Shown in pieces: positions 4,267 through 61,240 of a stretch of DNA of 64,000 bases. Numbering within the stretch: the first letter of the stretch is position 1; every line of letters starts with the position of its first letter. Origin of the DNA: Prorocentrum cordatum (Eukaryota); NCBI GenBank assembly GCA_963575745.1, contig CAUYUJ010000126.1:496001-560000 (forward strand), read 5' to 3'. The notes beneath the pieces were generated by a model. That model ran no database searches. It was not told where the DNA came from and saw only the letters and a program-made list of their open reading frames with translations. The position numbers and the translations under genes are program-made.

Positions 4267-4267
4267 A

Positions 4268-5289: not shown

Positions 5290-6090
5290 TGCAGCGCGAT
5301 TCCTACTGAATTCACATTGAGATAAACACATGAAATTTGAACGCAGTATGCGGGAGGTTTGGGTCAGCGCATTTCCCATTGAAATCATATAGAGTACCAC
5401 ATAGAGTACTAAAGCATTCAGCGGGAGGCTGGGATCAGCGCATGTCCTGTTGAAGACATATTGACAACACATCGAAGATTCAATAATTATGCGGAAGATT
5501 AGGGCCGACGCAATTCCTATCAAATTCCAACAGAGAAGAGCATAGGATATTCAAAATTCTGCGGGAGGCCGGGGCCAGCGCATGTCCTATTACATTCGAA
5601 CTGAAAACCGAATAAACTACTACAGAATTTTGCCAGAGGCTGGGATCAACACATTCCCGATCCGATTCCGGCTGATAAAAATTCAAAACTATTGAATTCT
5701 GCGGTGGGATGGGACCGGACCAGCGCGTGTCCTATGAATTCCAATTCCCAACCACATGCAAGATTTGATAAGTATGCGGGATGCTGGGACTAGAGAGAGT
5801 CCGGTGGAAGCCCGATCGAAAAACCAACAGCATATCAAAGAATTCCGAGGAAATCTGGGAGCCAGCGCATTTCTCAGAAAAGCCCCATTGAAATCCAAAT
5901 AAACCATTGAGCTAAGTATGCTGGAAGGTGGGGGCGGCGCATGTCCTCTTGAATCCCATTCGAAGGAATTTGCAATACAGAGTTCTGCGGAAGGCTGGGA
6001 TCGGCACATGTCTTATTCAATTCCGATGGACAAACACACCGAAAAGTAAAGAATGAAACGGTCTGCTTGGATCGGCGTATTCATAATTCT
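5290..6090. repeat. degenerate tandem repeat, about 60-70 bp unit
   Basis: Recurring core gcgggaggctgggatcagcgcatgtcctattgaattc. Confidence 0.75.
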
Positions 6091-7650: not shown

Positions 7651-7814
7651 CATAAGAATGCGCGGTAAGATAAGGATGCAAGGGCCTGAGACGCCCATTT
7701 CCAAGCTTTTCGAGAGGGGCGCGGCCAACGAAAGTGACGAGGGATGGACCAAGGAGGCAGGGATGCAGGGATACCCTTGGGAAGGTTTCCCTTCCTTACT
7801 ATGCGGGCTGACTG
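7651..7814 (+). mobile_element. CAGTC-family MITE copy, left end missing
   Basis: Same body as 51838-52016; ends cttactatgcgggctgactg followed by TA. Confidence 0.7.
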
Positions 7815-7849
7815 TAGAGGATCAAACGGTCTTAAGTACTCTTGCCGCA

Positions 7850-10800: not shown

Positions 10801-12037
10801 GCCCCCAAGACGACCCCAAGAGGGCCCCAAGACGGCCCAAGAGGCTTCCAAAACACACCAGGTAATCTCTAAGACGGCCCTGGAGCACCCCAAGCCGGCC
10901 CAGAGAGGCCCTCAAGACGGCTTCCGACGGCGTCAGAAGGGCCAGGAGGCCTTCAAGACGGCCCAAGATGACTCGAAGATGACACAAGACGGCCCAAGAG
11001 GCCCCCAAAACGGCCCAAGAGGCCTGCAAGAGGCCCTCCAGAAGGCCCGAAGAGGTCGAAGTCATTGATGTTCCTCAGGTTTTTAAGGATTGCGGCGGTT
11101 GCATCTTTTCGGCCTTCCGACGGCCCGAGACGGCCCAAGAGCCCCCAAAGATCGCCCCAAGATCGCCCGAGAGGCCTCCAGGATGGCCCTAGAACGGTCC
11201 AATAGGCCTCCAAGACGGCCCCAAGAGTGCCCCAAGACGGCCCAAGAGGCCCCCAAGACGCCCAAGATGGCCTCCAAGACGGCTCTGGAGCACCCCAAGA
11301 GGGCCCCAAGTCGGCCCAGAGAGGCCCCCAAGACGACTGCCGACGGCGTCAGAAGGGCCAGGAGGCCATATCAAGACTGCCCAAGATGCCTCGAAGATGG
11401 CCCAAGACGGCCCACGAGGCCCCCAGGAAAACGCCCCAAGAGACCCCCAAGATGGCCTCCAGGAAGGCCCGAAGAGGCCATGTGCCTCAAGTTTTGACGG
11501 ATTTGGGCAATTGATTCTTGTCGGCCTTCCGATGGCCCCGAACGGCCCAAGAGCCTACAAAAATCGCCAAACAAGATCGCCCAAGAGGCCTCCAGGATGG
11601 CCCCAGAACGGCCAGACGGCCCTGGAGCACCCCAAGAGGGCCCCAATTCGGCCCAGAGAGGCCACCAAGACGACTGCCGACGGCGTCAGACGGGCCAGGA
11701 ATGCCTTCAGACGGCCAAAAAGGCCCACGAGAAGCCCCCATAGACCCCCGAGAGGCCCAAGGAGGCTCCCAAGATGCCTCCAAGAGGCTCCAAGGAACCT
11801 CCCAGGAGGCTCCAAGAGTGCCCCCAGAGGCTCCCAAGATGCCCCCTCCTCCTCCTCCTCCTCCTCCTCCTGATCTTCCCCGCCATCCTCCCCCAAGTGT
11901 TCCCCCAAATGGCTTCTGCAACGGTTGGGGGGAACACATGGCCCGATAGCTTGGCAGAGCTCTTGCCACAACGCTTGGCCACATGGGCGATTCCAAAAGG
12001 CAGGGGGCGACACTGATCCGCCGTAGGCGTCTTCGAT
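7850..12037 (+). mobile_element. head-to-tail array of three CCAAGA-minisatellite elements (about 7850-8527, 8528-10257, 10258-12037)
   Basis: Full units start ccgccgccccctg, contain (ccaagacggc/ccaagaggcc)n and end caggrggcggcggtgattcgccgtaggcgtcytcgat or a variant. Confidence 0.8.
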
Positions 12038-13559: not shown

Positions 13560-15740
13560 GGATTCACATACATAGCTATGATAGAAGCATGCATGTAGGT
13601 GTATGAACGTATGTTAGATATATAACCTATAGATGTGTATATATGTATACATGTTTGCATGCGTGTATGTGTATATGTGCGTATGTGTACATGCATGACT
13701 GTATGTATATGTATATATATATATATGAATGGTTGTGTGTGTGCTTGCATGTATGTATGTGCGTAATTATGAATATACGTATGTACGCATGTACGTATGC
13801 ATGTATGAAGGTATACATGTAGGCATGAACTTATGCATGCATGCATGCATGTATGCATGAGTGTTTGTGTGAATGTATATATACATATATGTATATGCAT
13901 GTATGTATGTGTGTGTTGCAATGCGTGTATGTGTGTATGTATGCTTACATGCATGCATGCATGCATGCATATGTGCATATATGCATATATGCATGTGTAT
14001 GTATGCATGTATGTATGCATGCAAATCAATATGCCAAGAAGTATGTCTGTATGAATACGCGAATGTGTGATTGTATGCATGTATGTAGGCTTGTATGTAT
14101 GCATGCATGCATGAACGTATACATGTATGTATGCGTGTATGGATGCTGATATGGATGTGTATGCATGCATGCATGCATGCATGCATGTATGTATGGATGC
14201 ATGTGTGTATGTAAGTGTGTACGCTTGTATGTATACATGCAGGTGTATGTGTGCACTCATGCATGCATGCACGTATGCATGAATGTGTGCCTGTGTGCTT
14301 GTGTGCATGCTTTTATGTATGCATGGATGCATGCATGCATGTATGTGTGCATGCATGTGTGCATGCCTGTACCTATGTATCTGTGTATACATGCATTCAT
14401 GTATTTGCGTATGTATGCATGTATGCATGTATGCATGTGTACATGTGTATAGTCGTATGCATACATGCAGGCATGCAGGCATGTTATGTATGTGTGTAAG
14501 TGTGTATGCATGTGTGTACGTAGGTATGTCCGCATACATGCATGCATGTATGTATGCATGAATTGATGTATACGTGTTGGTATGTATGTTTGTGTTGTAT
14601 GTATGTGTGTATGCAGACATCAAGTAATGTATGCATGTATGTGTATGTGTACGCATGTATGTATGTATGTAGAGGGCAGAAAATCCACCCCGATAATAAC
14701 CATCCCGACACGAGAGGCCTTGAGTAAACGCGCCCAAAGAAGGAATCGAACACGGCAGGGCTGTTTAGTAAACGCCCAGGGCCGTTTAAACAACGCCAAT
14801 TGTCCCGTCCGGGAGGTTTTTCCTCCCTTGAGCATGTATGCGTGCATGCATGTATGTATGAATGTGTGAAGCTGTTGTTGTATGTATGTGTGTTTGTATG
14901 ATTGCATATATGTGTGCATGTATGCATGCATGCATTCATGCATGTATGTATGTGTGCATGTGTGTATATGTGTCTGTATGTGTGTATGTATGGCTGCATG
15001 CATGCCTGCCTGCATGCATGCATGTACGTATGGATGTATGTGTGTATGTGTATGTGTATGTGTGCATGATCATGCGTGGGTGCGTGGGTGTATGTGTGCG
15101 TGCATGTATGCATGTATGTGTGAATGTGTGTGATTATGTATGTTGTATGTATGTATGAGTGGTGCGTGCATGCTGTATGGTGTATGTTGTATGGACGTGG
15201 TATGTTGTATGTGTGTATGCTGTGGTTGTTGCATGTTGTATGTTGTATGAATGTGTACACGCATGAAAGTATGTATGTGTGTATGTGTATGTGTGTATGC
15301 ATGCATGCATGTATGTATGGTTGTATGTATGTATGTATGCATGCATATATGTGTATGTGTATCGTGATGTTTGTATGTTTGCATACATGCATGCAAGTGT
15401 GTGTATGCATGCATGTGTGTATGTATATATGTATACATGTATGTGTATGGATGTAAGCATGCATATATGTATGTATGCATGTATGTGTATATGTATGTGT
15501 GTACGTGCGGTTGCTTGTATGGTTGCATGGGTGTATCTATGTATGTATGCATGCATGCATACATGCCTGCATGTGTGCATACTTGTATGTATGTGTGTTT
15601 GTAAGTGTGTGTATGTTTTTTATGGATGGATTGGTGAATGTATGAACTTATTGATGTGTATGTGAATATATATATATATATATACACATATGTGTGGATG
15701 CATGCATGGTTGCATTCATGCATGTATGTATGTGTATAGA
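13560..15740. repeat. (ATGC/ATGT/GT)n alternating purine-pyrimidine low-complexity tract
   Basis: Seen directly; source of the His/Thr/Met/Cys-rich spurious ORFs. Confidence 0.95.
14671..14830. repeat. short dispersed repeat inside the microsatellite; second copy at about 54362-54540
   Basis: Both share gaaggaatcga..gggctg.ttag.a.acgccca.ggccg...ccgggag...tttcctcccttg. Confidence 0.65.
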
Positions 15741-17107: not shown

Positions 17108-17214
17108 CCGCCTCGGCGCCGCCGCCCGCAGCGCCTGCCAGCCGGCCGGCCACCAGCGGCCCCTCCGGGGCCGTGGGCGCCTCCGGCCCCGCGGCAAAGG
17201 CCGAGTCGCCGCCC
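17108..17214 (-). CDS. possible micro-exon (GGDSAFAAGPEAPTAPEGPLVAGRLAGAAGGGAEA)
   Basis: cccag|G acceptor, G|gtgac donor; phase matches the 18575-18691 exon. Confidence 0.4.
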
Positions 17215-17259
17215 CTGGGAGCCGTGGTGCGGCGGCAGTCGCCCTGGTGGGAAAGCGGC

Positions 17260-17875
17260 ACCTCCGCCTCCTCCGCCTCCTCCGCCGACTCCTCCTCCTG
17301 CTCCTCCTCCTGCTCCTCCTCCTCCTCCTTCTCCTCCTCCTCCTCGTCCTCCTCCTCGTCCTCCTCGTCCTCCTCCTCCTCCTCCTCCTCCTCCTCCTCC
17401 TCCTCCTCCTCCTCCTCTGATTAGCATTACTCTTCTTATACTTACTACTAGTATGAATATTCCTCTATGAGTATTATCATGACTGTTCTTACTCGTCGTG
17501 ATATTGATATTACTGGAATTATCCGAAGTATGCTTGAACTTGCTCGTAATAGTAGCATGATTTTTATTAAATATATTATACACATGTGGAATCGCACGTT
17601 TACTACGTGTTCTTCGTCGTAATAATAATACTATTGCTGTTATTATGAATAGTATTAACATGACTCCTCCTTCTCCGCTCCTCCTCCTCCGCCTCCTCCT
17701 CTTCCTCCTCCTCCTCCGCCTCCTCCTCCTCATCCTCCTCCGCCTCCTCCTCCTACTACTCCTCCTCCGCCTCCCCCTCATTCGCCTCCTCCGCCGCCTC
17801 CTCCCACCTCCTCCTGCCTCCTCCTCTTCCTCCTCCTCCTCCTCCTCCTCCTCCTCCTCCTCCTCCTCCTCCTCA
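17260..17875. repeat. (CCT)n and TAT-rich simple repeat
   Basis: Seen directly. Confidence 0.9.
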
Positions 17876-18574
17876 CCTACACACCGAGCCTGGCCAGATT
17901 GGTCCCGTGCCCAGGATCGTGAGCTCGCTTCGGAGCTGAGGCCCAGTGGGAGGGCGAAGAGGGGCGAAGTACGCGGGGGGGGGGCGAGTGGGGAGGGGGA
18001 TGGAGAGGTCAATCCGATACTTACTCAGCCCAGCGAGCGCTGGCTGACGGTAAGCCCAAGCCTTTTTGCCCAAGCCAGGAGTGCGCGCCCTCCCGGCTTG
18101 GGCAGGAGGGCGCATACACCGATCCTGGGCTCAAGATCGGCCTGGAAAGGGTCGGTGACGGTGTGGGTTCCCTGAGATCTAACGTCGCGGAAGAATACAA
18201 CATCGCAACAAAAACGACGGTAGCCCTAGAACACATCTTTCTGCTGCACGTTTCGAGCCAACTCGACCCGTGAGGGTCCCAGGGCCCGAAACCAGCCGAA
18301 AACACTAGTTGTGAAGGACATTGCAACCCCCAGGTCTCAAGGGTTGGCGCCCTCCGACCTTGGGGACACCCAAAAGGTACCGATGCCGCTGCTCCCCGGA
18401 CCTCTCCCAGGGGTCTGCCTGACCAGCGGTGGCGACGAGGGCCCCCCCCAGGAGGCCCGCGCAGCGAAACGCGAGGGCATCCGCTCTTCCTCCCCCGAGG
18501 CCCTGCAGTCGCCCAGGAACGCGCCCAGCGCACGCCGCGACCGCCCGCCCCCGCGGGCCGCGGCGCCCGCGCAC

Positions 18575-25168: not shown

Positions 25169-25960
25169 ATCTCCGGTACCTGGTTAACAGTATTTCTAGT
25201 TCGCGCGCGCGGGGCGGCCCCTGGGGGTCCCCGGACGAAAAGTACCCCGGCAAGGTCCCGGCAAGTCCCCGGCCCCGGCAAGTCGGCCCGGCAAGGTCCC
25301 GGCAAGGTCGGGCCAGAGATGCCGGAGCCCTGTTACAGGGCCCCAGGACGGGCCAAGAGGTCCCCAAGAAGCCTCCAAGACGGTCCAAGAGGGCCCCGAG
25401 ACGGCCAAAGATCGCCCGAAGACGCCCAACAGGGCCCCAAGACAGCCCAAGAGGCCTCCAAGACGCCCCAAGGGCCTTCCAAGAGGCCTCCGAAGAGGGC
25501 CCCAAGAGGCCAAAATCGTTGATTTTCATTGTTTTTTCTATGTTTTTTGCGTTCTGGCTTTTTCGGCTTCCGGACGCTCCAAGACGGCCCAAGAGGCCCC
25601 CAAGACCGCTCCAAGACGGCCCACGAGGCTCCCAAGACGGCCCCGGAACGGCCCAGGAGGGCCCCCAAGACGGCCCAAGTGCCGCCCAAGACGGACCAAG
25701 AGGCCCCAAGACGGGCCCAAGAGGGGCTCAAGAGGGGAACCGAGAACTGAAAAATCGAGCCCTCCGCCCCAGAAGGCGCCCAGGAGGCCCCAAAAAGGCC
25801 CCAAGAGGCCCCCAAGAGGCCCCCAAGACGCCCCAAGAGGCGCCCAAGAGGCCCAAAAGAGGCCCCAAGAGGCCCCAAAACGGCCCCCAAGAGGCCCCAA
25901 AACTCGGCTAGCCCACAACGGTGCGACAATATGGGCCGGCGGAATGAGCGAAGCGATTAA
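25169..25960 (+). mobile_element. single CCAAGA-type element flanked by 21-bp direct repeats
   Basis: taaataaggaacgaggctcct (25148-25168) and taaatgaggaacgaggctcct (25958-25978); tail ggccggcggaatgagcgaagcgattaaat. Confidence 0.75.
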
Positions 25961-39250: not shown

Positions 39251-40429
39251 GAGGCCGACAATATGCCCCCCAAGAGAAGAGGACACAATGCGGCCCCCCC
39301 CCAAGGGCACCCTAAATGCCCCAGGAGGCCCCTGGGACTGCCAAGAGACCCCGGATACACCCCAAGAGGCTACCAAAAAGCTTTCGGATGACATCCGAAG
39401 AGACTGCGAGATGCATACAAGATGCGGCTTGCCTCTCTGTTCGCCCCCGCATCCTCATCCGCATCTGCCTCCTCCTGCCTCCCCCTTCCGTCTCCTCCTC
39501 TTTTTTTGGCCGTCCACGGCTACGCCTCAGGAATGATCTGAACCAGTCAGAGCGAGACACCCCTGCCAGGAAGACAAAAGAACTCAATCCGAATCGCTCG
39601 AAAACCGAGACGGCGGACACAACGGGGGAGCCTCGTCATCTACGCGAGCGGGCCCCCTCCTGACCTCCTGGAGCGCTCCGCTCCTGCAGGGCCCTGAAAA
39701 CAGGAACCGAGCCGCCTCCCCCTCCCCCTCCTCCCCCCGCTCCTCCGAAGCAGCGAGGGCCCCGCCTTGCGGGGCACGCTGGACAGGGGCCCGCGCGCCA
39801 CCTGAACCGGCCCCTGCTCGCGGGGGCACGTCGGGCGGATGGGGGCGGGAGGGGGGGCTCGATGGGAGGGAGATCCGAGGCGAGCCGACCGGGGGAGGCC
39901 GAGACAGGCAGACTGCACGCTGTCTCAACCACGACCTGTGGCTTGTCAGGGCGGCTGCCCTTCTGAATCACCGTCCCATTTCTGTGGCCCGTTATAGTGG
40001 GCGGTTGGCAAGACTGGCCCAGCTTCTCGACTTGGGCCCCAGAACCATAACACCTGCAGTGCAAGCACGTAAACACGAACAAATTGTCAGAACATGCGGG
40101 GGCCATGACCTCATGTCCTAACCTGTCAAGCACCGCCAAGTCCAGCCTGGAGTGGCCCCTGCATCCCCCAGGCTCAGGCTTGGACTGGACAGAGAGCCCT
40201 GAAGGCACACTCTGCATCTCCAGACATTGCCGATGAGCTCCCATTGGTGCTGCAGCCGAGAGACGGCAGGAGCAGGAGGAGGAGGAACCCGCTCCACCCC
40301 AAGAAACTCCACCCGAGGCCAAAGGGGGAGGAGAGCAGCACCAAGAGCCATCACAGCCTTGGAAACTTTAATTTTCCAGTCGGGCTCCCTTGAGAGCTGA
40401 GGGTCAAAAGGGGTGTGGCGGGCTACCGC

Positions 40430-40870
40430 TCGCTTGGCTCCAGCATCAACTAGCTCGTTGCCCCTCCTCAGAAACCTCTCCTCAGGGGATAAACCATCCC
40501 CTCCGGGGTCGAGGTGGGCAGCGACTTTGGCCAGAGAGCGCAGCTTCCCCCTCTCCAGAGCTAGACCCCGCAACATGAGCCCAGAGTAAACCCTCTTGGG
40601 AAACTTGCAAACATCGAGGCCCCAGGGAGTACTGCTTAACAACGTTTGCACAATCGCTATAGGCGTCAGCCCGACCTCCAACACAGACACCGACACCGCA
40701 GAAGGCATAATACTCAGCGGCCTGGGGTGACTGAGCATACGGGGGCCGCACAGGGGCAGAAACTTCACATAGCAAATTGGCATCGGAGCCCACCATGGCA
40801 ACGCACCAAGCGCTCCTGCACAATTCTGACACAGGGTGGCGGATGCAGGAGCCATCTATAAATAGGGCCC
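40430..40870 (-). pseudogene. LINE ORF2 RNase H domain
   Basis: LFIDGSC, QSPQAAEYYA, AYSDCANVV, KVAAH, GNELVDAGAK. Confidence 0.88.
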
Positions 40871-42079
40871 CCCAGACACCTAATTCGGGAGAGGTGGGAG
40901 CGGGCCCCTGGGACCCAGGGAGGGAGACCTCAGGAACCACCCAGTGCACGAATACTTCTCCATTACTCTCAGGCCGAGGGAAATAATCGCCAGGGTGCCT
41001 AAACGCCCCGTAGATCCAGAGAGGGGGCCCGTAGTCCTCAGCCCCCGTGTCGAGCGCACAAGACAGGACTTCGGCATCAGCGATTTCTTGCCTCTCGGGC
41101 GCGCACGAAGGGCACTCCCAGATGCGGCGCCACAAAGTGTCAACCGACCCGCGGCACAACTGGCAGAGGTCGCTGATCTGGTAGCCAGCCAGCTTCGCAG
41201 AGCTGGCCGTCCAAATAGCATTGCACGCGAGAGCTCTCATACTGGAACGGTCCTTCGGGCTGGAGGGTTTCGACCTGATTTTGGACCTGGCAATGCCCCA
41301 ACAAAGTCGGCGGTCGACCCCCATCTCCCCCCCCCCGAAGACCGTTCAAGCCCCCCCCCCCCCCCCCAGCACAGCAGCGCGACACGACACCCCCACAAGC
41401 TTCGGAGACAAGAGAAGAAGCTGGAGGGCCTCACCTAGATCGTTAACAATGGTGCAGAAGTTGGGCACTTGCCACCCTAATCGGCACAATGACATTCGCA
41501 GCGCAGAGACATGACCCCCCACGTTGGCCCAAGACCAGTCACCCCTGTCGAAGGCAACCCCCCAAGCAGCACGTAAAACCGAGAAGGGGAGGGCACCGTC
41601 AAAAGCACGCGTTTGAACGAGCCATAACTCTTTGCACCAACGAATGATGGGCGCAACGCTCGCCCCCCAAGGGGGGCCACCCTCCAGGAGGGAGAGGATG
41701 GCGAGAGAACGATGCTGAGACTTGGGGGAGATCGCGGCCATGCCCTTGCTCCTAAGCGCGCGAAGTTCACGGCCCGAGACGCCCCGTATTTCGAACCCGA
41801 AAGAAACGCCCGCCAGCGGGCCAGAGGCGAAGATTTTTACCGAGGATATACCAAGAACTTGCTTGTGCTTATCCAGGCGCCTGCACTGTCGAAAAAACTT
41901 GGCCTGGCGAGCCTTGAGTGGGCGAGCGACGACATATGTACATGCACGCCCTGCGCGGTCTTGCCTGCACGAACGTCCGCGTTGACACGCACCCCAGAGG
42001 AAGCTAAACGCGTGCGTGTACATATGTTGTTGGCCTCTGATTGAGTTCGGACACGCTTTGCCCTTTTTGGAGCCTGGGG

Positions 42080-42950
42080 TAGCGGTGCGCAATGAGCGGC
42101 CCGCCGCGCAGTCAACACCTAGGCTCACCACCGAGGCCGAGGGCTAGCCGCACAACTCTCCCAGACGCCCCTCGAGCTGAATCGCAATGGACTCGTGGCT
42201 GCACACGCAGCCGACCTTGTCGAGGGCCAGCGTGCAGCCAAGCTCCTGGGTGACCGCCTTGTGCAAACTCACCGAGGAAGAAACGAGCGCCTCGACCACT
42301 TCGGGAACCGTGCCCGTGCGCGAGAGACATGCATCATCAATGCAGGCGTCGAAGTCTGTGCCAAAAGCCAAACCTGCACTCATATGATCGAAGGCCGCGA
42401 GGGCGAACACTCTGATGAACGATGTCGCCATAGAACAGCCTGCAACGACTCCTGACTCAACCCAGAACGGGCCTTCCATGATGCCTCCTAGACTAAGGAA
42501 CCTGCACGAACGATACGAAGACAACGCAACTCTGGCGATGACAATGAGATGCTCTCGTAGTACTTCTGAAGATCTAGAAAACCGAGCCTGCGGCGAGGCC
42601 TTTGGAGACGCCCGCCTCGGCCTTGAAACTCTGCCTCCAGACAACATCGATGTCCCCCCTGTTGGCCCCCGCCGCCCAGTAGGGCCGCGCGAAACGCTTT
42701 TCCCACTCGAGGGCGACAGGCCCCCTGGCACGGCCCCAGAGCCGATGCCACGAATCGAAAACCCCGATGGACCTAAAGCCTCCTACAGGCTTAGGCAAGA
42801 GGGCCAAAAACACTACCATCATTTGATCGGGGAGCCGACCCGTAGCTTCAACGACCAAGAGAAGCCCTCAGAGCGCGGCAAGGGCGGCATCACTCAAAAC
42901 CGATTAGTGTCTGAGGTGGAAGCCGTCCACTGAGACAGCACTCTGCTTGC
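42080..42950 (-). pseudogene. LINE ORF2 reverse transcriptase domain
   Basis: AVSVDGFH, LLPKPVGGFRSIG, FLDLQKYYESI, GVVAGCSMAT, ACIDD (YxDD), VSLGVD across several frames. Confidence 0.9.
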
Positions 42951-43879
42951 GGTAGGACTTGCTTATTTGTCTGGTGTTATCTGGGGGCAACCTGGGCAAG
43001 GGTTTGACCAACTTCACGGGCCCCACGGGGGGGCCAGCCCCGAACCCCCACCATTTCTGAAAACGCTTCCCTTCAGCAGCCAAGAGAGCCCTAGGATCAG
43101 CCACGAGGCCCCCGTTGGAGGCCAACGTAACAGTGGGGGGCCAGGGGGCAGGGTCTCTGAGGATTTGATGAGCCCCGCGGCCCCCTTTATCGAGCCCCTC
43201 TTGGATCCAGGAGCGCCATCTGGCCTTGTTTTCCTTCGCGAGCTCCTTAGCAGCACCATGGAGGAGCGGGGCGAGGACTGAAAACAGCCGATCCAACTCA
43301 GCCACAAAATCAGAGAGCGCAACCGGAATCCGAAAGATCAGATCCGCCTTTTCCTGACCAAGGCCATCGAGCGCAACGGGCAAAACGCGGGGGGGAAAGT
43401 GGCCCTAGAAGGAGCCGACGCAAACGCCAGGCACGAGAGGCCAGCCAATCGATCAGCGCAGGACGCTGCCAAGCTGGCGGCTTGGCGAAAAAACTCCAAC
43501 ATGGCTCTCCCACGCCGTGCCCGGGCACGGCGGAGGCGAGCACATGGCCGTGATGCATTGTCGTGGAACTCGATGCAACAACACTTCCGATCCCAAGGCC
43601 TGGAGCTGAGAGTTCTGCCCCTGGACCCGTAAACAGGAAGGCCATGCCCAAGAATCTTGGCTAAGTCAAATTCAGCTCTATTCGCCTAGAGGCCGTAACC
43701 TTCCGAATGCAGGGCAGCGGCCCCGTCGCCACCCCTGAAGACACTTTGTCCACCGCAGCGTTGACAAGGTCCAAAACCAGATCCCAATCAGCGCTGCACT
43801 CCCGCGGCCGAGGGCCGAAAGGGGGGTCAACAGGCAGGGGCGGCGGTCTGCGGAAGGCGAGAGCCTTTAAGAAGAGAAG

Positions 43880-44560
43880 CCTAGGGTGAAAAACCAGCGA
43901 CGCAGGACGGCGGGGCTCGAGCGTCGTGCCCAGACGAACGCTGGCCCCCCTGAGGCCCTTAGCGAGAGGGGAGGAGACAACGAAATAGTCGAACTTGGAG
44001 GGAGCACCCTGGGGGGGATAGCGGGCACAATGAGGCGTGGCAACGAGAAGCCCCCCAGCGGCTTTCGCGAAACCCATGCCTTCCAAGATATCAGGGCCAA
44101 AATGGAAATCCCCTCCGATGCTGTATTCTGCCGACTGACTGCTCACAAACTCCCCCAAGTCGCTGAGGATGCCCCCGTTGGAGGCGTCGAGCCCCACGGA
44201 GTGGTGAAGATACAGCGAGACCAGCAGCAACGCGGGGCTGTCTGGGGCGCGACGCATGCAGGCTAGGCAGCGGCCCCGAGCAATGGCCGGGGAAGGCGCA
44301 GAGTAGAGCCCAAGCCACGACCTTGCAGGAATCGCCACGCCAGCACTGTCGCCACCCTGTGGCCCTGGGACAGCCGCAAGCCAAATAGATTCCCAGCCAG
44401 CACCGAGGGCCGAGACAGAGGCAAGATCAATAGCCTCGGGATCCCTGAGTCGATCCTCTTGGCAAAGAATGATGTGTGCCGAGCAGTTCGGATCCTCCGA
44501 GAAGTCCTTCATCGTACCCCACTTGTTACAATTGATGGTCCAAACTTCCAACGCGGCACT
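43880..44560 (-). pseudogene. LINE ORF2 APE endonuclease domain
   Basis: WTINCNKW, ILCQE, SAGVAI, VSLYL, IGGDFH, FDYFVVS, PRRP in ORF 43661..44641. Confidence 0.9.
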
Positions 44561-44889
44561 GCCAGCGCCCCCTGAGCACTCCCCTGGGCCCTGGGTCCTG
44601 GAGGCCAGAGCGGGGCAGGGGGGGGGGGGTCGGCCTTGCACTCAGGTCGCAACAAAATCTTCTGCGCCTCGGGGGCCGAGGATTCCAAGACAGGGCTACA
44701 CTCCCGTTTCAGCCTCCCGCCGGTGGCAGGTGTGTAAAAACTCTTGGGAAAAGCACTGGGAAGACGCATGCAGGCGTGGACCTCCAATATAAAATTGTCG
44801 AGCTCGGCAGAACTTCGAAACAAGAGAGGCCAGGCGCCTCTCACATCCAGGAAACCACTGACCCCCTCCCTTCCCAGGGAGGGGGCATG

Positions 44890-46042
44890 GATTTGAAAGC
44901 TCAGCTGCAACCTGCACGCGAATGTCGGGCTCAGAAGGCTCAGCCTGCGAAGCTGATGCTGAAGACCCCGACGACGCCGCCCCAGCAGCCTGACCAGCGC
45001 CTTCAGCGCCCCCAGCTGCTTCGCCCCCGAGCGTAGCTGCGTCCGAGACGTTGCCGACTCCAGTCTTGCGCTTCTTGCCGAGCCTCTCGAGATGCTTGGC
45101 GCGCTGCTCCTTTGCTTCTTTGGTCTTCGCCAGGACATCTTCAAATAACGATGTGGCAGCCTCGCGAACCTTGCCAGACAACTCATCCTTGCGCTGCTGC
45201 ATCTCCTCGCGGTCTTGCTCCTCGAGCTCGTAAGCGTCATCGGCGACCTCGAGCACACCTGTGGAGATGATCTTGTCGATGGACGCCGACCCGCCCACCA
45301 GCTGCTCGAGTGTGACTTGGGCCACCGCAGCAGGAGCTGGCTCAGAAGGCACCTGCTGCTGCAGCCCCAGCACGACCATTTGTAGTTCGCATCTGCCTCA
45401 CCCAGTTCAGCGTGAAGCTCAGCCACCTTCTTGCGCTGCTCCTCGAGCTCCGCCCTCCACTTGTTGAGCTTGGCGAACTCGACCTGCAGGGCACCCTCCT
45501 TGCGACGAACAGCGGCGTGGGCTGACTGGACCTGCTGCTGGAGGGACGGAGCGGGGGCCCTCTCAGTCTTGTCCAACGAGGCCGCGATGGCACGGTACCT
45601 GGCGGCAAGCTGCTCTTCTCCACCCTTGGCGTGCAACTCGGCGAGCTGCTTGGCCTCCGTGGCGGACAGGCGAGGTACAGGGCCAGGTGGTAATGCTCCA
45701 GACTGTTCTCCAGGGAGAGAAGCTGCCAGCTTGCCTTTGCCATGCCCAGCGAGCACCGAACCCTTGCCTTTTCCCTTTTTGCCCTTGCCCTTGCGCCCAC
45801 CTTTGCCGGAGTAGTCTCCCAGCACCATGGCGCCAACCTCTTCGTCGACTGACGAGTAGCCGCGCGACCAAGCTCCAGAGGCAGGCTGTGCGGGGCGGCC
45901 TGGACTTTCGGGAGTACGGCGTGGCAGTGCTTGCACCAGTTGAAGTGAGCCAAGGTTGCGGCGACATCCGCAGTACGGGCAGGCACTCTTCGAAGGCGGG
46001 GTGCGATGCGAGGGCTCACCTCCTCCCACTTGCCGAACCCAT
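44890..46042 (-). pseudogene. LINE ORF1 (Cys4 zinc finger, GK-rich tract, coiled coil), frameshifted
   Basis: CPYCGCRRN joined by a frameshift to HFNWCKHC; GKGGRKGKGKKGKGKG; long E/K/Q/L-rich helical segment. Confidence 0.7.
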
Positions 46043-46203
46043 GGATTGTAAACCCAGCCGCCAGCACCGCACGGGTACGGGGAATGCCTGAAACGAACGT
46101 GATGGAAAGAATGTTGGGGCAAGGCCCAGTAAGAGTACCAAAAAAACTCTGAAGATCGAGGGTGGGGCCGCGAATCCCCTTATGCCAAAAACCCAGAAGT
46201 CCC

Positions 46204-46222
46204 CCTGAGCCACCGCTACGGA
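46204..46222 (-). other. relict spliced-leader copy
   Basis: TCCGTAGCGGTGGCTCAGG directly 3' of the intact leader; central CATTT replaced by GG. Confidence 0.75.
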
Positions 46223-46244
46223 CTTGAGCCAAAATGGCTACGGA
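46223..46244 (-). other. intact dinoflagellate spliced leader sequence (22 nt), retrocopied
   Basis: Reverse complement reads TCCGTAGCCATTTTGGCTCAAG, 22/22 to the DinoSL consensus. Confidence 0.97.
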
Positions 46245-47384
46245 GCTTCCGTCTCCTCCTCTCCCTCCTTCCTCCTCCTCCTCCTCCTCCTCCGCCTCCT
46301 CCTCCTCCTCCTCCTCCTCCTGCTAATCCTCATACTCCTCCTGTTTCTCCTCCTCCTCCTCCGATTCCCTCCCCCTCTATCCTCCCCCTCTTGGGGTATG
46401 ACTGGACGTCTTGCCCAGCCCTTTGTTCCACTGCGTTCTCCTCCAAGTTCATGGTCACGCCGTCTCGCCTGAGCATCGTTTCTGGATGGGTTTGCGGGGA
46501 TACGCGAAGCGTCTATGTTCTCTATGTGTCCCTCCCTTTATTTCTTGTTGTTGTTTCTCTCTCTATGTATATGTGTCGCCCTCTCTGTCTCGTTCTCTCT
46601 TTCTCTCTCTATATATGTGTATACATCGGAATCTACATGTGTATATGTATAGATATATGTTTATGTAGATGTATAGCGCTCTCGCACTCATTTGTGTTTG
46701 TTCTCTCTCTCTCTCTCTCTCTCTCTCTGCACACACATATACAGATATAAGCATGTATCGCTCTCCTCCTCTCCCGCCCTCTCTCTCTCTCTCTCTCTCT
46801 CTCCCGTCTCTTGTCTCAATTGCTTTGCGCCTGGTGTGGTTGTTTCAACACTCCCCGTACCCCAAGGTGTGAACCACCGCTAAGAAGGCGATGGCGGCCT
46901 CGGCTACAGCAGTAGCCGGCTCTCGACGAAACTCCCGTTTACTTCTCCGATCTTTCTTTCCCGCCCTCTCCTTTTTGTACTTCGCTATCTATATATATAT
47001 ATATATGTGTGTGATATGTGTGTGTGTTCCTCTATCTCTTCTCTCTCTCTCTCTCTCGTCGTCCTCCTCCTCCTCCTCCTCCTCCTCATCATCATCATCA
47101 TCATCATCATCCTCATACTTCGCCTCATCCTCCTCCTTTTCCTCCCTGCCTCCCTGCCTCCCTGCCTCCCTCCCTCCTCTCCTCCCTCATCCCTCCTCCC
47201 TCCTCCCTCCTCCCTCCCCCCTCCTCCCTCCTCCCTGCTCCCTGCTCCCTCCTCCCTCCTCCCTCCCTCCTTCCTTCTCCCCCCCCCCCTCCTCCCTCCT
47301 CACTGCTCCCCCCTTTCCTCCTCCTCCCTCCTCCCCCCCTCCTCCCCCCCCCTCCCCCCACCCGAACCAGGACCCAACCCAGGC

Positions 47385-47471: not shown

Positions 47472-50350
47472 CAGTCAAAACTGACGGGAGGGATGCGCGA
47501 ACCAAGAGGCCCCATGGGGCCCCCAAGAGGCCCAAAAGAGGCGCCAGTCCAAAATCAGAAATTTTCCGAAAGTGTTTGAAAGATGTTGGCATGTGCTTCT
47601 TTTCGACATTCCGACGGCTCTAGACGGCCCAAGAGGCCCCCAAGATCGCCCACGAGGCCTCCAAGATGGCCCCATGACGGCCCAAGAGGCCCCCAAGACG
47701 GCCCCAAGAGGGCCCAAGACGCCTCCAGACGGCCAAAATAGCCTCCAAGACGGCTAAGATGGCCCCAAGATGCCTCCAAGACGGCCCAAGACGCACCCAA
47801 GACGGCCTAAGAAGGTCTCAAGATGGCCCAAGACGGCCCAAGAGGCCCCCAAGAGGCCCCCTAGAGGTCTCCAAGACGGCCCAAAAGGCGTCCAGGAGGT
47901 CTTCCAGGAGGGCACGAAGATGCCAAAATCATTGATTGTCCTTGGGTGTTTGAAGGAGATTGGCATTTGCTTCTTTTCTGCATTCCGACGGCTCAAGACG
48001 GCGCAAGAGGCCCACAAGATCGCCCAAGAGGCCTCCAAGATTGATGGCCTCATGACGGCCCAAAAGGCCCCCAAGACGGCCCCAAGAGGGCGCCATAACG
48101 GCCCCACAGGCCTCCAAGACGCCCAACATGGCCTCTAAGAACCTCTGAGATACCCCAAGAGGGCCCCAAGACGACCCAGACAGGCCCGCAAAACGGCTTC
48201 CGACGGCGTCAGATAAGCTAGGAACCCCTAAGACGGCCAAAGAGGACCCCAAGAAGCCCCCAAAGGCCCCAAAAAACCATCCAAGAGGCCCCCAGGAAGC
48301 TTCCAGGAGGCCCCAAGAGTGCCCCAAGAGGCGCCCAAGATTCTTCCTTCTCCTCCTTCTCATCCTCCTCCTCCTCCTCCTCCTCCTCCTCCTCCTCCTC
48401 CTCCTCCTCCTCCTCCTCCTCCTCTTTGTTCCTCATCCTCCCCCTCCTCCTCTTCTTGCTCCCCCACGCGTTCCCCGAAGTCTTTCCAAACGGAATCGGG
48501 GAACAACTGGCCCGATAGCTTGGCCAAGCTCTGGCCCGGCTGTCGGCCACACAGGCGCTTCCAAAGGGGCAGGGGGCGGCGGTGATTCGCCGTAGGCGTC
48601 TTTGATCCGCCGCCCCCTGTTGACTCACCCGGCGTGCTGAGTCCTTTCGCTTTTGGTTTTGGTTCTTTTTCCCCCCCCAAAAAAAAACTCCCCCTGGGGT
48701 TTCGGCCCCGCCCGCCGGGGTCCAGGGATGGCCTGGAAACGGTCGTTCCAAAAGCTTTTCATGCTCCAGATGGCTCCAAGATGGCTTACAAGAGGGCCTA
48801 TATGGGCCAAGATGGCAGGTTCGCCCAAGATGGTCCAAGATGGCCTCCAAGACGGCCAAGGAGAGTCCCAGATGCCTCCAAATTCGTACAAGAAACCTCT
48901 CAGACGGCCCAAGACGGCCCCAGAGGCCTCCAAGAGGCCTCCAAGGCAGCTCAAGAGGCCTCCAAGAGTGCCTCCACGAGAGCCCGAAGAGGTCAAACTC
49001 AACATTTTTCTTAGGTTATTGAAGGAGTTTGGCTTTCGTTATTTTCGAGCCTTCCGACGGCTCACGACGGCCAAGGAGCCCAATAAAGATCGTCCCCAGA
49101 GCGCCCAAGAGGCCTCCAAAATGGCCCTATGACGGCCCAAGAGGCCCCCAAGACGGCCCCAAGAGGGCGCCAAGACGGCTCCAAAGGCCTCCAAGACGCC
49201 CAAGAAGGTCTCCAAGACGGCCAATATGGCCGCTAAGACGGCCAAGATGGCCCCCAAGATGGGCCCGAGAGATTGCCCTAGAGGAGTCCAGGAAGGCCCG
49301 GGGGAGCCACAATCGTCAATGTTACTTGGGTTTTGAAGGATTTGTGCTTTTCCTCGGTTTTGGTGTTCCGACCGCCTGAGACGGCCCAAGGAGTCCCGAA
49401 ACTAGTCCCAGAGGCCTCCCAGATGGCTCCAGAACGGCCCAAGAGGCCTTCAAGCCAGCCCCACGAGGGCCCAAGACGGCCCAAGAGGTTTCAAAAACGG
49501 CCAAGATGGTCACAGAGATACCTGAAGACTGCCAAGATGACCTCCAAGACGACCAAGATGGCATCCAAGACGGCAGAACTATTCCCAAGAGAGCCGAAGG
49601 TGGCCTAAGAGGTGCCCAATATGCCTCCAAGACAGCCATTGACGCATCCAAGACGTCCTCTAAAATCTGTGATTGTTCTTCGGTTGTTGAAGGATGTTTG
49701 CATGTTCTGCTTTTCAGCTCTCCGACGGCCCAAGACGGCCCAAGAGACCCCCAACATCGCCCCCAGAGCGCCCAAGAGGCCTTCAAGATGGCCCCATGAC
49801 AGGCCAATAGGCCCGCAAGAGGGCCCCAACAGTACCCCAAGACGGCCCAAGAGGCCCCCAAGACGCCCAAGATGGCCTCCAAGACGGCCAAGATGACCTC
49901 CAAGATGCCTCCAAGACGGCCAAGAAGGCCTCCAAGACGGCGAAGATGGCCCCAAGATGCACCCAAGACGGCCCCGGCCCAAGACCCCTCCAAGACGTCC
50001 TCCAGTAGGCCCGAAAGCTCGGAAACCACCTGGTCCGATAGCTCGCCCGACTCCGTGTTCCCCGAAGGTTTTCGAAACTCTCTCGGGGAACGCGTGGTCC
50101 GATAGCTTGGCCAAGCTCAAACCCAACCTTCGGCCACGCAAGCGCTTCCAAAAAGGCAGGGGGCGGCGGTGATTCGCCGCAGGCGTCTTCGATAGTAAGG
50201 ATGCGCGATCGAGATGCGAGCCAATTGGACGCCCATGCCGAAGCTTCTCGAGAACGGCTAGCTATCGAGGGTGGTCAAGGATGGACCGAAGAGGCAAGGA
50301 TGCAAGGGTGCCCTTGGGAAGGTTACCCATCTCGTACATCGTTTCGACTG
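47472..50350 (+). mobile_element. CAGTC-family MITE (47472-47500 and 50191-50350) split by a CCAAGA array
   Basis: TA|cagtcaaa at the left, ttcgactg|TA at the right; MITE body resumes right after the array tail. Confidence 0.6.
47501..50193 (+). mobile_element. two-unit CCAAGA element array (47501-48606, 48607-50193)
   Basis: Same head, minisatellite and hairpin tail as 8528-12037. Confidence 0.8.
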
Positions 50351-50382
50351 TAGGGGGAACGTTGCACGCACGCCACATATCG

Positions 50383-50383
50383 T

Positions 50384-50445
<62 letters not shown>

Positions 50446-51108
50446 GCATCAGCATCATCATTATCATCAGCATCAGCTACATCATCACAACCATCATCAT
50501 AATCAGCCACCTCAACACCATCATCTGCATCAACATCGTTGTCAACATCATCATCGTCATCGTCTTCACCATCACCGTCATCCTCATCCTTACCCTCACC
50601 TCCATCACCCGCATCAAAAGTATCATCAACAGCGTTATCATCATCACCATCAGCAGCAGCATCATCAGCATCATCATTATCATCAGCAGCATCGTCATCA
50701 ACATCATCATAATCATCATCAGCATCAGCATCATAACCATAATCAGCAGCAGCAGCATCATCATCACCATCAACAACAACAGCAGCCGCATCATCGTCCT
50801 TATCCTCCTCATCATCCTCCTCATTCTCATCGTCTACCTCCTCATCCTCCACCTCCTCATCCTTCACATCCTCATCCTCACCATCATCACCTCGGGGCCG
50901 TCTCGTCACGTAATTGTCAGCAGAAATATACAATCCTCATAATCACCACCACCATCATCACCACCACGATAATCGTCATGATCATCGCCGTCATCACCAC
51001 TACAATAATCATCATCATCATCATCAGCAGCATCATCATCGTCGTCGTCGTCGTCATCGTCATCATCATCATCATCATCATCGTCATACTCATCGTCATC
51101 AGCATCAT

Positions 51109-57000: not shown

Positions 57001-59659
57001 CTCTGGCCCACGGAGGTTCCCCGAGCTCTTCAAATGATGTCCCGCTCCCCCGATGGACAGCACCCCTGGGCATCCTTCCTGGATGAGCTGGTTGGGATGA
57101 GCAGAGCGCTACGTGGCACAGACACGATGCCTGGGTTTGCCGCAGACAGCACCCCCTCACCCACCCGCAAACAGCACCCCCTCACCCCCCCTTGCACGCT
57201 CAGCCTCCGGCCACCTGTGCCGGCAGTATCGGACAGGGCGGAGTTTTATCGACCCCATCTGCCCTGTTTTTTGTTTGGAATGTAAGACCGTGCTTCGCAC
57301 CGACATCTTGCCTCATATACACACCTACCAGCGACAAACCATGAACAATGCCAACCCATAGCATCCATGTCAAACAAAACCTGGATACGTTCGGCAATCA
57401 TCTGGATTATGTTCGGGCGCCCCGCGATAAGTTTACATTCTTCGTTGTGGCAAAGACGAGTGCGCAGGGCATCAAATCGGTTGACGCGTGCAGGCCCATC
57501 ATCCCTGTCAGAAATCATTGGGATTTCCACGGTGCCGCAAACTTGGACCATGCGCGGGCGTCCCGCGATCAGTTTTCACTGTTCTTTGACGGGAGTGATG
57601 GACGGGCCCTGGCACACGCGGCGCACCTCGTGGGCGATGCGCACCTGGCTGGCGTCTGCATTGGTTCGCGTTGGCTGTCGATGACGGCCCCTGCCTGTGC
57701 TGAGACTCGGGTGCTACGTGTGTCGCGGGAGAGCGGGTGGGGCTGAGCGAGACGACCGCACTTCGAGAGGGGGGGAGGGTAGCTTGATCACTGCTCCTCA
57801 TGACTACACAAACCCCTCCCCCACCCGACGGTCGACACACCCAGGATGGTGCGCCCCCCCCCATCCCTGTCAAAAAGCCAAAAGCAATGCGAAGGGCGTT
57901 TTTACAGTAAAATCTGGACCGTGCGCGGGCGCCACGTGAACACCATGATTTGCTTGTTTGACAGGGGCGGCGGGGGAGGGGGGGCCTCATATTGCCCGCC
58001 CAAAACCTACCGCCCTTGAAACAAACAACACCATGTACCATACTACACGTTGCGGCAACATCTGGACCGTTCGCGGGCGTCCCATGATCACTTCGCATGG
58101 GCTGCTGACAGGAACGGCGGCGGCGGCGCCCTCAACATGCCCGCTCTGCGCAGACCAACCCTCCGCGTTGCTTGAACATCCCCCCTTCTCTGGTCGATAA
58201 CCTCCCAGGTGCCCCAAAGACGGCCCGCCAGGCCCCCAAGAGGGTCCCAAGAGGCACCAAGAGGCACCCAAGAGGAGGCCCCCTAAGAGGCCCCACTGAG
58301 GGACCGAAGACGCCCCCACATGCCTCCCAAGAGCCAGCCCGGGGCTCCACGACGTCCCAAGAGACCTCTCAGAGTTCAGGGCAGCTCCGCTCGGCATTGT
58401 GCCTGGATGTGCTGGTGGGGATACTTGTTTGATCGCAAGCGCACCCGAAACGCCAGACGCCGTCCGAAAATCGCAACTAGCAAGCTACGGCCTAAATTGC
58501 GCCAGCAGGAAGAAGAGGGAGACGACGAGAGGATAGCGGAGGAGGAACAAACAGGAGGCGGGCCTCGCTGCCGCTTACAGAACGGCGCCGTCGACTGGGG
58601 AGGAAGCCGCCAGTCGGAGTGCAACGCAAAATGGCGGGGGGGGATTCTAGTTGGGCGACTCCGCGAGCGTGCCGGAGGCCAGGGATCACCGGCTCGTAGA
58701 CGCACCACGAGGAGCAGGCGCCAGTGGTCAACGGCCACGCCGTCACGCGGGCAGCGGGCGTACTTCACGCGCTGCCAGCCGTCAACCAACCCACGTGCAG
58801 GCGCTCGACGGACCAAGGTCCAGATCGCCAGACACCGTCGAAGACTGATGTCGAGGCCGCGTTCACGAAGCGGGGGATGCGGACGGACGCGCGCCCACCA
58901 GGTTGGGATCGATCCAGGCGATCGAAGGCCCCGGAGCACACCATGGAAGCGTCCAGCCGCGAGCGTGTCGGATCCCACTTGGGGACCGTCGGGAGGACTA
59001 CCCGCACGGTGGGGGTTCGACCGAGAGGTCAGCAGGCCGCAGGCCGGTGAGGGAGGTCGCAGCAGGCCACGAGCCGCAGGGGGCGGAGAGGCCGAGGCGG
59101 AGAGGGGGCAGCAGAGGGCGGGCGGGCGACCCGAGGTGGCGGCCCGCGCCGGCCGTGCAGCAGGAGGTGGAGCCCAGGCGGCGCCTTTGTGCGGAGCATA
59201 GGCATAGGCCGCTGGGCGGGGGCGCCGTGGCGAAGTAGGCCACGGCAGTGAAACGCCTCCGACGCGTCTGGGACCCCAGAGCCGGTGGCGGGGGCAGAGC
59301 GTCGAAGGGGCCCCGAGCGGCCCACGCTGGGCGGGGGGCAAGGGGGGTGGCCCGGCGCCAGGGAGCGAGGAGCCACAAGCTAGACCGGTGACAAGGGCGC
59401 ACTGGTGGGCAAGGCGCGAGCCCACAGCCCCAGCCGGGGGGCGGGCGAGGGGACCAGCAGGCAAGGGCGGGGGGGGAAGAGCCCGAGGGCGAGGCGCGGA
59501 AAGCGCGGGAGGCCTGCCGTAGAGCTGGCGCCTGCCAGGGGGGGCGACAGAGCCGCAGCGGGGACGGACGAAGAGGCGACTAACGGTCGCAAGCGTATAG
59601 AATGTGCATTTCATGGTCTGAGCTTGCACTCAGGAGTCCCGCCAGGATGAATTCCCCGA

Positions 59660-61240
59660 ATTCCTCCTCTCCCCCTCCTCCTCCTCCCCCTCCTCCTCCT
59701 CCTCCTCCTCCTCCTCCTCCTCCTCTCTCCTCCTCCTCTCCTCCTCCTCCTCCGCCGCTCCTCCTCCTCCGCCTCCGCCTCTCGCCTCCGCCTCCGCCTC
59801 CGCCTCCGCCTCCGCCTCCGCTCCTCCTCTCTCCTCCTCCTCGCCTCCGCCTCCTCCGCCGCCTCCTCCTCCCCTCCTCCTCTCCTCCGCCTCCTCCTCC
59901 TCCTCCTCCTCCTCCTCCTCCTCCGCCTCCTCCTCCGCCTCCGCCTCCTCCTCCGCCTCCGCCTCCTCCGCTTCCTCCGCCTCCGCCTCCTCCTCCTCCT
60001 CCTCCTCCTCCTCCTCTTCTTCTTCGTCTTATTCTTATTGTTTTTCTTATTATTCGAAGTATTCGTATTGTTCGTCTTATTACTCGTATTGGTATTCCTA
60101 TTAGTATTCTTAGTCTTAATATTCTTCTTATTATTAGTATTCTTATTCGTATTATTCTTCTTAGTATTAGTATTATTATTAGTAGTATGAGTATTATTCT
60201 TATTCGTCTTATTATTATTCTTATTATTATTAGTATTCTTATTCTTATTAGTATTATTATTATTAACAGCATTATTATTATTAATAATAATATTAGTACT
60301 ACTATTATTATTAGTATCAGTATTATTTTTATTATTATTAATATTATTATTAGTATTAGTATTACTATTGTTATTATTAGTATTCTTCTTATTATTCGTT
60401 TTATTATTATTCTTCTTCTCCCTCCTCCTCCTCCTCCTCCTCCTCCTCCTCCTCCTCCTCCTCCTCCTCCTCCATCCTCCTCCATCCTCCTCCATCCTCC
60501 TCCATCCTCCTCCATTATTATTAATAATAATATTAGTACTACTATTATTATTAGTATCAGTATTATTTTTATTATTATTAATATTATTATTAGTATTAGT
60601 ATTACTATTGTTATTATTAGTATTCTTCTTATTATTCGTTTTATTATTATTCTTCTTCTCCCTCCTCCTCCTCCTCCTCCTCCTCCTCCTCCTCCTCCTC
60701 CTCCTCCTCCTCCATCCTCCTCCATCCTCCTCCATCCTCCTCCATCCTCCTCCATCCTCCTCCTCCTCCTCCTCCTCCTCCTCCTCCTCCTCCTCCTCCT
60801 CCTCCTGCACCTCTACCTTACTCCACCTCCCTCCTCCTCCTCCTCCTCCTCCTCCCTCCTCCTCCTCCCCTCCTCCTCCTCCTCCTCCTCCTCCTCCTCC
60901 TCCTCCTCCTCCTCCTCCTCCTCCTCCTCCTCCTCCTCCATACTATTATTCGTAGTATTCTAATGTGTCTTCTTCGTGTCAGAATTCTTATTGTTATAAA
61001 GTATCAGTATTGCTAAGCTTCGTATCGTATCAATAGTAGTATGCTTATGCTTCGACGTGTTATTACTATTATTATGTGTAATCGTATTAGCCTCCTCCTC
61101 CTCCACTGCCCCTCCCTCCTCCCCCCCTGCCCTTCCCTCACTCCCTCCTCCCTCTTCCTCCTCCTCCTCATCCTTCTCCTCCTCCTCCTCCTTCTGATCT
61201 TCCTCCTCCTCCCTCCTGCCTCCTCCCTCTCTGCCCCCGC
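59660..61240. repeat. (CCT)n and (TAT)n simple-repeat block with an exact 240-bp tandem duplication
   Basis: 60274-60513 repeated at 60514-60753. Confidence 0.95.

Follow-up and report, generated by a model that had tools for sequence, protein, structure and literature searches.

A decayed LINE of Prorocentrum cordatum whose first bases are the dinoflagellate spliced leader

Retrogenes tagged with the dinoflagellate spliced leader (DinoSL) were reportedly described by Slamovits and Keeling in 2008 as cases of 'mRNA recycling'. The NeSL-1, SLACS and CRE elements insert into spliced leader (SL) RNA genes via a restriction-like endonuclease. Here we analyze a long interspersed nuclear element (LINE), that is, a retrotransposon without long terminal repeats (LTRs), which occupies positions 39502-46244 on the minus strand of a 64,000-nt stretch of Prorocentrum cordatum DNA (contig CAUYUJ010000126.1, positions 496,001-560,000; hereafter, the window) and spans 6,743 bp, with a GC content of 61%. 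This copy begins with a perfect DinoSL. We consider it probable that it arose when a mature LINE RNA, bearing a trans-spliced leader and poly(A), was retrocopied by target-primed reverse transcription, and that the leader, now encoded in DNA, may let the next such RNA be re-made. The relationships to the described systems are outlined below, and the features of the locus are collected in Table 1.

In the DinoSL-tagged retrogenes, as in the element analyzed here, the 5' end of a retrocopy is formed by a DNA copy of the leader, and successive rounds are recorded as stacked leaders (PMC12014239, PMC6050394, PMC5585692). Unlike in these retrogenes, the RNA copied here is the retrotransposon's own, and the target-site duplication and the A-tail are both visible. 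Another difference concerns the relics of older leaders. In transcripts, such relics are usually cut at the internal AG of the leader, leaving CCATTTTGGCTCAAG or the shorter CTCAAG (PMC12014239), whereas the inner relic in the window starts from leader base 1.

SymbioLINE-Dnmt and the DNMT-less LINEs of Symbiodinium (de Mendoza et al. 2018) also come from a dinoflagellate host, have conserved untranslated regions (UTRs), and share with the present element the order Exo_endo_phos - RVT_1 - RNase_H as well as target-site duplications (PMC5890265). However, the SymbioLINEs are described as lacking poly(A), whereas this element ends in a tail of 6-7 A, and SymbioLINE-Dnmt carries the DNMT in ORF1, whereas no Pfam family is detected in the frameshifted ORF1 examined here, a comparison made by description only (PMC5890265). 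The main text of that paper contains 0 occurrences of 'spliced leader' or 'DinoSL'.

The L1Tc/ingi/RIME elements of trypanosomatids, which possess the Pr77 internal promoter, are likewise LINEs of a host that trans-splices and transcribes polycistronically, but they represent the opposite arrangement: their transcripts start at +1 and are unspliced, whereas here the leader is part of the copied RNA (PMC1874656). By escaping trans-splicing, the authors argue, these elements keep their RNA at full length (PMC1874656).

The NeSL-1, SLACS and CRE/CZAR elements resemble the present one in being LINEs physically associated with a spliced-leader sequence (PMC4640811), but here the leader lies inside the target-site duplication, the window lacks an SL gene, and the endonuclease belongs to the AP-endonuclease (APE) type. 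The relatives of the element show an N-terminal Exo_endo_phos and a C-terminal RNase_H domain and give no sign of a restriction-like endonuclease, although no search was aimed at that domain.

Finally, transcripts of a dinoflagellate positive-sense single-stranded RNA virus and integrated viral genes bear DinoSL, that is, a genetic parasite carries the leader of its host (PMC9651163). Viral parasites possibly bear this leader for translation or for passing as host RNA. A different situation is encountered in giant-virus bins: these are viruses, their DNA encodes the leader downstream of a viral AT-rich motif, and neither a duplication nor a tail accompanies it. In IMG/VR, the exact DinoSL 21-mer is present in 119 stretches (L001-L119, mostly giant-virus bins) with 132 distinct occurrences. 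An A and a recurring AT-rich motif stand before 126 of these, and GT comes next in only 3 cases. Judging by these contexts, the leaders look like ones encoded in viral DNA at gene starts.

Boundaries of the element and its two leaders

Read 5' to 3' on the minus strand, the locus consists of AGAGGAGGAGACGGAAG (46262-46246), a single C (46245), the leader TCCGTAGCCATTTTGGCTCAAG (46244-46223), the remainder of the 6.7-kb element, GGCC, AAAAAAA and GAGGAGGAGACGGAAG (to 39485). On the plus strand, the duplicated 17-mer reads CTTCCGTCTCCTCCTCT. Searched on both strands, it occurs exactly twice in the window, still twice at up to 1 mismatch and 3 times at up to 2 mismatches. The match between the two copies extends 0 bases beyond either side, and the base preceding the left copy (39484, C on the plus strand) differs from 46245 (G on the plus strand). 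The plus-strand T-run covers 39501-39507, and its first T can be shared with the duplication, which leaves either 17 bp with A6 or 16 bp with A7. The flanks are CCT-rich simple sequence, but the 17-mer holds a non-repetitive CCGTC core and its sole partner lies directly against the oligo-T run, so that a chance origin of the duplication is not credible. The element contains no LTRs and no long terminal or internal repeats besides the simple sequence of the flanks, and no second copy was found within the window by blastn or tblastx. The similarity between its 5' and 3' ends is not significant, with the same score reached in 363 of 3000 random draws.

The DinoSL 21-mer has a single match in the window at up to 3 mismatches and none in 100 dinucleotide-preserving shuffles. 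The perfect leader is followed by TC and not by a GT donor. Given that leader base 1 lies 1 nt from the duplication, that the leader is inside it, that TC follows it and that no other leader exists in the 64 kb, we infer that the transposition intermediate was a trans-spliced, polyadenylated LINE RNA.

A second, worn leader directly follows the perfect one. In the sequence behind the outer leader, TCCGTAGCGGTGGCTCAG, the first eight bases are leader bases 1-8 and GGCTCA corresponds to bases 15-20. The local alignment score of this stretch is 21, compared to a maximum of 20 among 5000 random 38-mers from the element, and among the 132 leader occurrences in IMG/VR, only one has a leader-like score of 20 or more in the next 30 bases. 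The inner leader has lost 3 bases and several others are changed, whereas the outer one is perfect. The presence of a worn leader behind a perfect one implies that the lineage acquired the leader at least twice. Because the inner relic starts at base 1, the earlier addition would have used an acceptor situated immediately 5' of the old leader, in flanking DNA. An acceptor in the flank fits a precursor RNA that started outside the element. AG dinucleotides occur at leader positions 6-7 and 21-22, and another AG is located 1 nt upstream of the leader (GGAAG-C-TCCG).

These observations bear out most of what the initial annotation had read from the letters of this locus, namely, a 6.7-kb LINE bounded by a 17-bp target-site duplication and oligo(A), whose first base is base 1 of a perfect 22-nt DinoSL separated from the duplication by 1 nt, and which was copied from a mature trans-spliced RNA. 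The chance match in CCT-rich DNA that it had listed as a possible refutation is countered by a sole exact pair with sharp edges. Its call for a count of tandem leaders is answered for this copy by two stacked leaders, one perfect and one degenerate, the second of which had been missed. Two claims stand in part. The AG sites at leader positions 6-7 and 21-22 are consistent with a copied leader that supplies acceptors, but the inner relic starts at base 1 and is not truncated at an AG. The term 'full-length' holds for the structure of the element but not for its ORFs, which are broken by four in-frame stops and by frameshifts.

Table 1. Features of the LINE locus in window coordinates
Feature	Positions	Strand	Basis or remark
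Target-site duplication, 5' side of the element	46246-46262		CTTCCGTCTCCTCCTCT on the plus strand; 17/17 identical to 39485-39501
Single extra nucleotide at the duplication/leader junction	46245	-	C on the sense strand (G on plus)
Perfect 22-nt DinoSL TCCGTAGCCATTTTGGCTCAAG, the first 22 bases of the element	46223-46244	-	22/22; 1 nt from the duplication
Degenerate second leader from leader base 1 (TCCGTAGC-GGT-GGCTCAG)	46205-46222	-	Local alignment to the leader
Remaining 5' UTR	46012-46204	-	Met of the relative P0153 aligns at ~46011
ORF1 remnant, frameshifted: N-terminal CxxC...CxxC zinc-finger-like motif, K/G-rich stretch, coiled coil	44858-46011	-	Identity to P0153/P0154
AP-endonuclease (Exo_endo_phos-like) domain	43805-44554	-	PF03372 of relatives; tblastn range
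Reverse transcriptase region, three frames (core ~42206-42789)	42206-43308	-	Stops at 42906 and 42870
ORF2 C-terminal part: zf-RVT-like stretch, RNase H (~40428-40882)	40199-42205	-	Stops at 42146 and 41348
3' UTR with a C/T-rich low-complexity stretch	39508-40198	-	No homology past 40199
Oligo(A) tail of six A (seven with 39501)	39502-39507	-	T-run on the plus strand
Target-site duplication, 3' side of the element	39485-39501		Exact 17-bp pair

Identity and decay of the element, and other copies of the family

The assignment of the element to the LINEs comes from its relatives. Directly, Pfam searches with 9 ORF fragments of the window copy detect no family at E ≤ 0.01 (a weak zf-RVT match has a value of 0.16), and phmmer searches of PDB with two fragments return nothing relevant. 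By contrast, a search of 1.84 billion representatives with the 326-aa ORF at 43661-44641 yields 1124 relatives at E ≤ 1e-3, including 12 at E ≤ 1e-30. In 20 relatives scanned with Pfam, Exo_endo_phos (PF03372) was found in 15, RVT_1 in 8 and RNase_H in 7, and one protein, P0072, contains all three domains in that order. The endonuclease ORF also has an Atlas score of 0.96 to Exo_endo_phos clusters. Six long relatives are collinear with the element by tblastn (44554-40199): the endonuclease aligns at 44554-43805, the reverse transcriptase (RT) from 43308, and the C-terminal part with RNase H down to 40199, and the alignment crosses four reading frames. A profile of ten relatives matches human LINE-1 ORF2p in PDB (E = 1e-5) as well as exonuclease III. 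Judged by this homology, rather than by direct Pfam matches of its own ORFs, the element is an APE-type (APE-RT-RNase H) LINE. A metagenome relative (L120, positions 865-5313) encodes Exo_endo_phos, RVT_1, zf-RVT and RNase_H in order within a single open frame of 1483 aa, which means that intact members of the superfamily exist in environmental DNA.

ORF1 is family-specific, with two environmental proteins, P0153 and P0154, that are 73-87% identical to it. According to these proteins, ORF1 of the family starts ~233 nt behind the 5' end (~46011) and carries a CxxC...CxxC motif. The ORF1 remnant, a frameshifted sequence, matches no Pfam family at E ≤ 0.01, and the N-terminal extensions of 16 relatives show no homology to it. 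P0154 (aligned with window positions 45816-44858) is named 'archaellum component FlaC' by one source; given its 80% identity to the LINE ORF1, this name is most likely an artefact of the coiled coil.

The window copy is a pseudogene, structurally complete but decayed, and is not autonomous. Its ORF2 contains in-frame stops at 42906, 42870, 42146 and 41348 and at least 3 frame changes. In ORF1, there is at least one frameshift (~45377), the zinc-finger residues that match those of the relatives lie in another frame, and the position of the relatives' initial Met is not occupied by Met. The endonuclease has GDFH where the relatives have GDFN, as seen by eye against the consensus.

The LINE family is repeated and diverged, with multiple copies. 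In the DNA run X1, 1386 contigs cover all 30 bins of 39300-46500, with 80, 113, 888 and 305 contigs in the identity classes of ≥99, 95-99, 90-95 and <90%, respectively; X1 is possibly the source sample of the window itself and is not independent support. The ORF1/5' region is repeated in X1 as much as ORF2. The 3' UTR at 39541-39781 has a very high contig depth, typical of simple sequence. An extra A after 42574 is present in 4 X1 contigs and an extra C after 40187 in 2, in each case most of the X1 contigs at that site; the extra A implies that the frameshift near 42574 is private to the window copy or its subfamily.

The run X2 comes from another coded organism, and its 'RNA?' label is a guess. 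One 231-nt contig from X2 has its start within the leader (46235) and can be aligned as far as 46160, with 7 mismatches and 4 gaps in total; the differences that are listed (5 mismatches and 3 gaps) all fall within 46181-46204. Another 15 X2 contigs match down to 46213, so that the whole leader and the next ten bases are spanned by inference; their onward consensus aligns with the UTR of the window copy with a score of 20, matched or exceeded by 24 random 43-mers and by 75 shuffles (5000 of each). These matches, for which the upstream ends of the contigs are unseen, suggest that the leader, the relic and the UTR may recur together in diverged copies or transcripts. X2 also contains joints of the leader to 45454, 45117, 40288/40290 and 45947, but these involve K/E-coding or CCT-rich simple sequence, probably represent other mRNAs and are unused as evidence.

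Searches elsewhere were negative. In IMG/VR, the relic 18-mer has 0 matches, protein or alignment queries recover 0 relatives, and one whole giant-virus bin has 0 matches. A prokaryote genome collection contains 0 relatives of the ORF1 protein; the 18-mer across the leader/relic junction has 22 matches in it, all by chance, with flanks alike at 2-6 of 14 and 2-8 of 20 positions. The translated leader and 5' UTR, used as a protein query, give 0 matches.

Mechanism, alternatives and implications

The window copy was inserted by an APE-type target-primed event. The plus strand was nicked at CCTCCTCT/CCCTCC, the T-run was primed from that 3' end, and the RNA was copied from its poly(A) 3' end up to leader base 1. 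In the lineage as a whole, transcription, leader addition and reverse transcription followed one another for at least two rounds. Any transcript running into a copy could then re-make the next RNA by way of the DNA-encoded leader: trans-splicing at the terminal AG of the leader copy would yield an identical 5' end once more, and trans-splicing at an AG in the flank would stack one more leader. Under this scheme, the 5' end would be set by RNA processing and not by an internal promoter. The initial annotation, which proposed that the element may need no internal promoter and could be cut from host read-through or intronic RNA, placed it in the orientation of a putative host gene, but no host gene is identified in the window: of the 17 long flanking ORFs, only one has a Pfam match, to a zinc knuckle, and it is located 35 kb away. 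Our confidence is highest that a bona fide trans-spliced LINE mRNA was copied, lower that the family moves repeatedly via such RNAs, and lowest that the DNA leader serves as an acceptor in a family without an internal promoter.

Several observations weigh against this account. The window copy is the sole genomic copy seen with its 5' end, and its body is heavily damaged although the leader and the duplications are perfect, a combination compatible both with the mobilisation in trans of an already defective RNA and with decay of the copy once inserted. Leader bases 1-8 (TCCGTAGC) are retained in the inner relic, in contrast to the usual AG-truncated relics, so that its route of acquisition is puzzling, and the sense strand upstream of the leader is purine-rich and provides a poor polypyrimidine context. 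Among 7 related metagenome loci (scanned with alignment A2, given that A1 was too diverse), 0 carry DinoSL at up to 4 errors, and none clearly reaches the 5' end; in L120, the 864 nt upstream of the ORF contain no leader, and the 5' end probably lies beyond the contig. LINE relatives are found in 0 of the 119 DinoSL-bearing IMG/VR loci, and leader-derived peptides in 0 of 150 predicted proteins of relatives, where one AILAQ is an endonuclease motif. There is no RNA run on record that contains the element.

The leader could be an incidental tag, if the RNA of a dead LINE copy located within transcribed DNA received the leader as any host RNA does and was then retroposed by the proteins of another element, as host retrogenes are, with the leader no part of the cycle of the family. 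The contrast of 4 in-frame stops and several frameshifts with a perfect 22-nt leader and two intact 17-bp duplications favours this account, and such tagging is generic, given that leader relics are found on about one fifth of Symbiodiniaceae genes (PMC5585692, PMC6050394). It is nevertheless unlikely in our estimation: the degenerate second leader at the same 5' end indicates a repeated event in one lineage, the X2 contigs appear to share the leader, the relic and the UTR, and the equal repetition of the ORF1/5' region and ORF2 in X1 identifies the 5' part as belonging to the family and not as a host exon. The mobilisation of this dead copy by proteins of another copy is, in any event, also allowed for in the scheme favoured here, a retrocopy of a trans-spliced LINE RNA. 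We give somewhat less credence to the possibility that the element acquired the leader in a single capture and that transcription now begins at leader base 1, with the TTTT motif of the leader as the dinoflagellate TATA substitute, so that the RNAs mimic trans-spliced mRNAs without trans-splicing in each cycle. A promoter role of retroposed DinoSL has already been hypothesised for retrogenes (PMC6050394, PMC5585692), and the giant-virus bins hold the leader in DNA behind an AT-rich motif. However, a perfect outer leader next to an inner one that has lost 3 bases and changed at others implies that the outer leader is a later addition at the RNA level and not co-inherited DNA, and a leader transcribed from DNA would miss the leader's own cap unless the RNA was re-spliced.

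A template switch onto SL RNA at the end of reverse transcription would explain the precise junction, and SL RNA is abundant in the nucleus, but such a jump would also copy the intron part of the SL RNA, whereas here the 22-nt exon directly abuts the element; the free exon is a short-lived intermediate, and we regard this route as very improbable. To an insertion into or beside an existing leader (an SL RNA gene or the 5' end of a retrogene, in the manner of NeSL, SLACS and CRE), or to a chance match, we attach next to no probability, even though non-LTR elements specific for the spliced-leader exon do exist (PMC4640811). The duplication encloses the leader, and no other leader occurs in the 64 kb at up to 3 mismatches; the leader is followed by TC, not GT, and the window has no Rfam match; and the element has an N-terminal endonuclease of the APE type instead of a restriction-like one. 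The flank is thus not an SL RNA gene, a point on which the initial annotation had asked for a check, and its contrast with the NeSL/SLACS/CRE elements holds.

A retrocopy of a trans-spliced LINE RNA admits a broader extension, which we advance tentatively and hold to be possible, if somewhat doubtful as a whole. Under this proposal, the LINE family would have the host spliced leader as its canonical 5' terminus, with every productive RNA trans-spliced at or beside the DNA leader of the parent copy. Such a family would be promoterless and expressible from any co-oriented transcribed region of unidirectional gene arrays, and its machinery, which copies leader-capped RNAs all the way to the 5' end and leaves 16-17-bp duplications, would also account for the host retrogenes that bear DinoSL in their thousands and whose source has long been sought. 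If family-wide, this would be a LINE answer to the 5'-promoter problem that reverses the trypanosomatid solution (PMC1874656).

The accessible literature on dinoflagellate spliced leaders and on trans-spliced non-LTR elements yielded no description of a LINE with DinoSL as its 5' end, although supplements may bear on this. According to published work, the reverse transcriptase behind dinoflagellate retrogenes is unknown, and LTR elements are the preferred candidates (PMC6050394, PMC5585692). In the window copy, an APE-type LINE pathway reverse-transcribed a leader-capped RNA up to base 1, and the product was inserted with both a target-site duplication and an A-tail. The locus further suggests that some of the 'DinoSL retrogenes' counted so far are LINE copies (cf. 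the GO term 'RNA-dependent DNA replication', which is enriched among DinoSL-tagged genes; PMC5585692). A specialist might expect a leader on LINE mRNAs in a trans-splicing host; the value of this locus lies in the explicit anatomy, the tie to an APE-type LINE and the contrast with trypanosomatids. The explicit anatomy of leader and LINE makes the question directly testable by a genome-wide count.

Rest of the window

On the minus strand, an ORF at 3209-4189 encodes a CCHC zinc knuckle (E = 2e-7). Behind it, in the same orientation, comes a 674-aa ORF (650-2674) that looks protein-like but has no Pfam match. Positions 650-4189 are possibly a second, unrelated retroelement that runs toward the start of the window and lacks a leader. 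The window is dominated by simple and short-period repeats (7800-11800, 25300-25900, 47600-49900, 13600-15000, 17200-17900, 50300-50900 and 59600-60800), which include arrays of CAAGACGGCCC-like units with an 11/21-nt period, TG/CA-rich microsatellites and long CCT/CCTCC tracts. The LINE sits in one of these CCT/CCTCC tracts.

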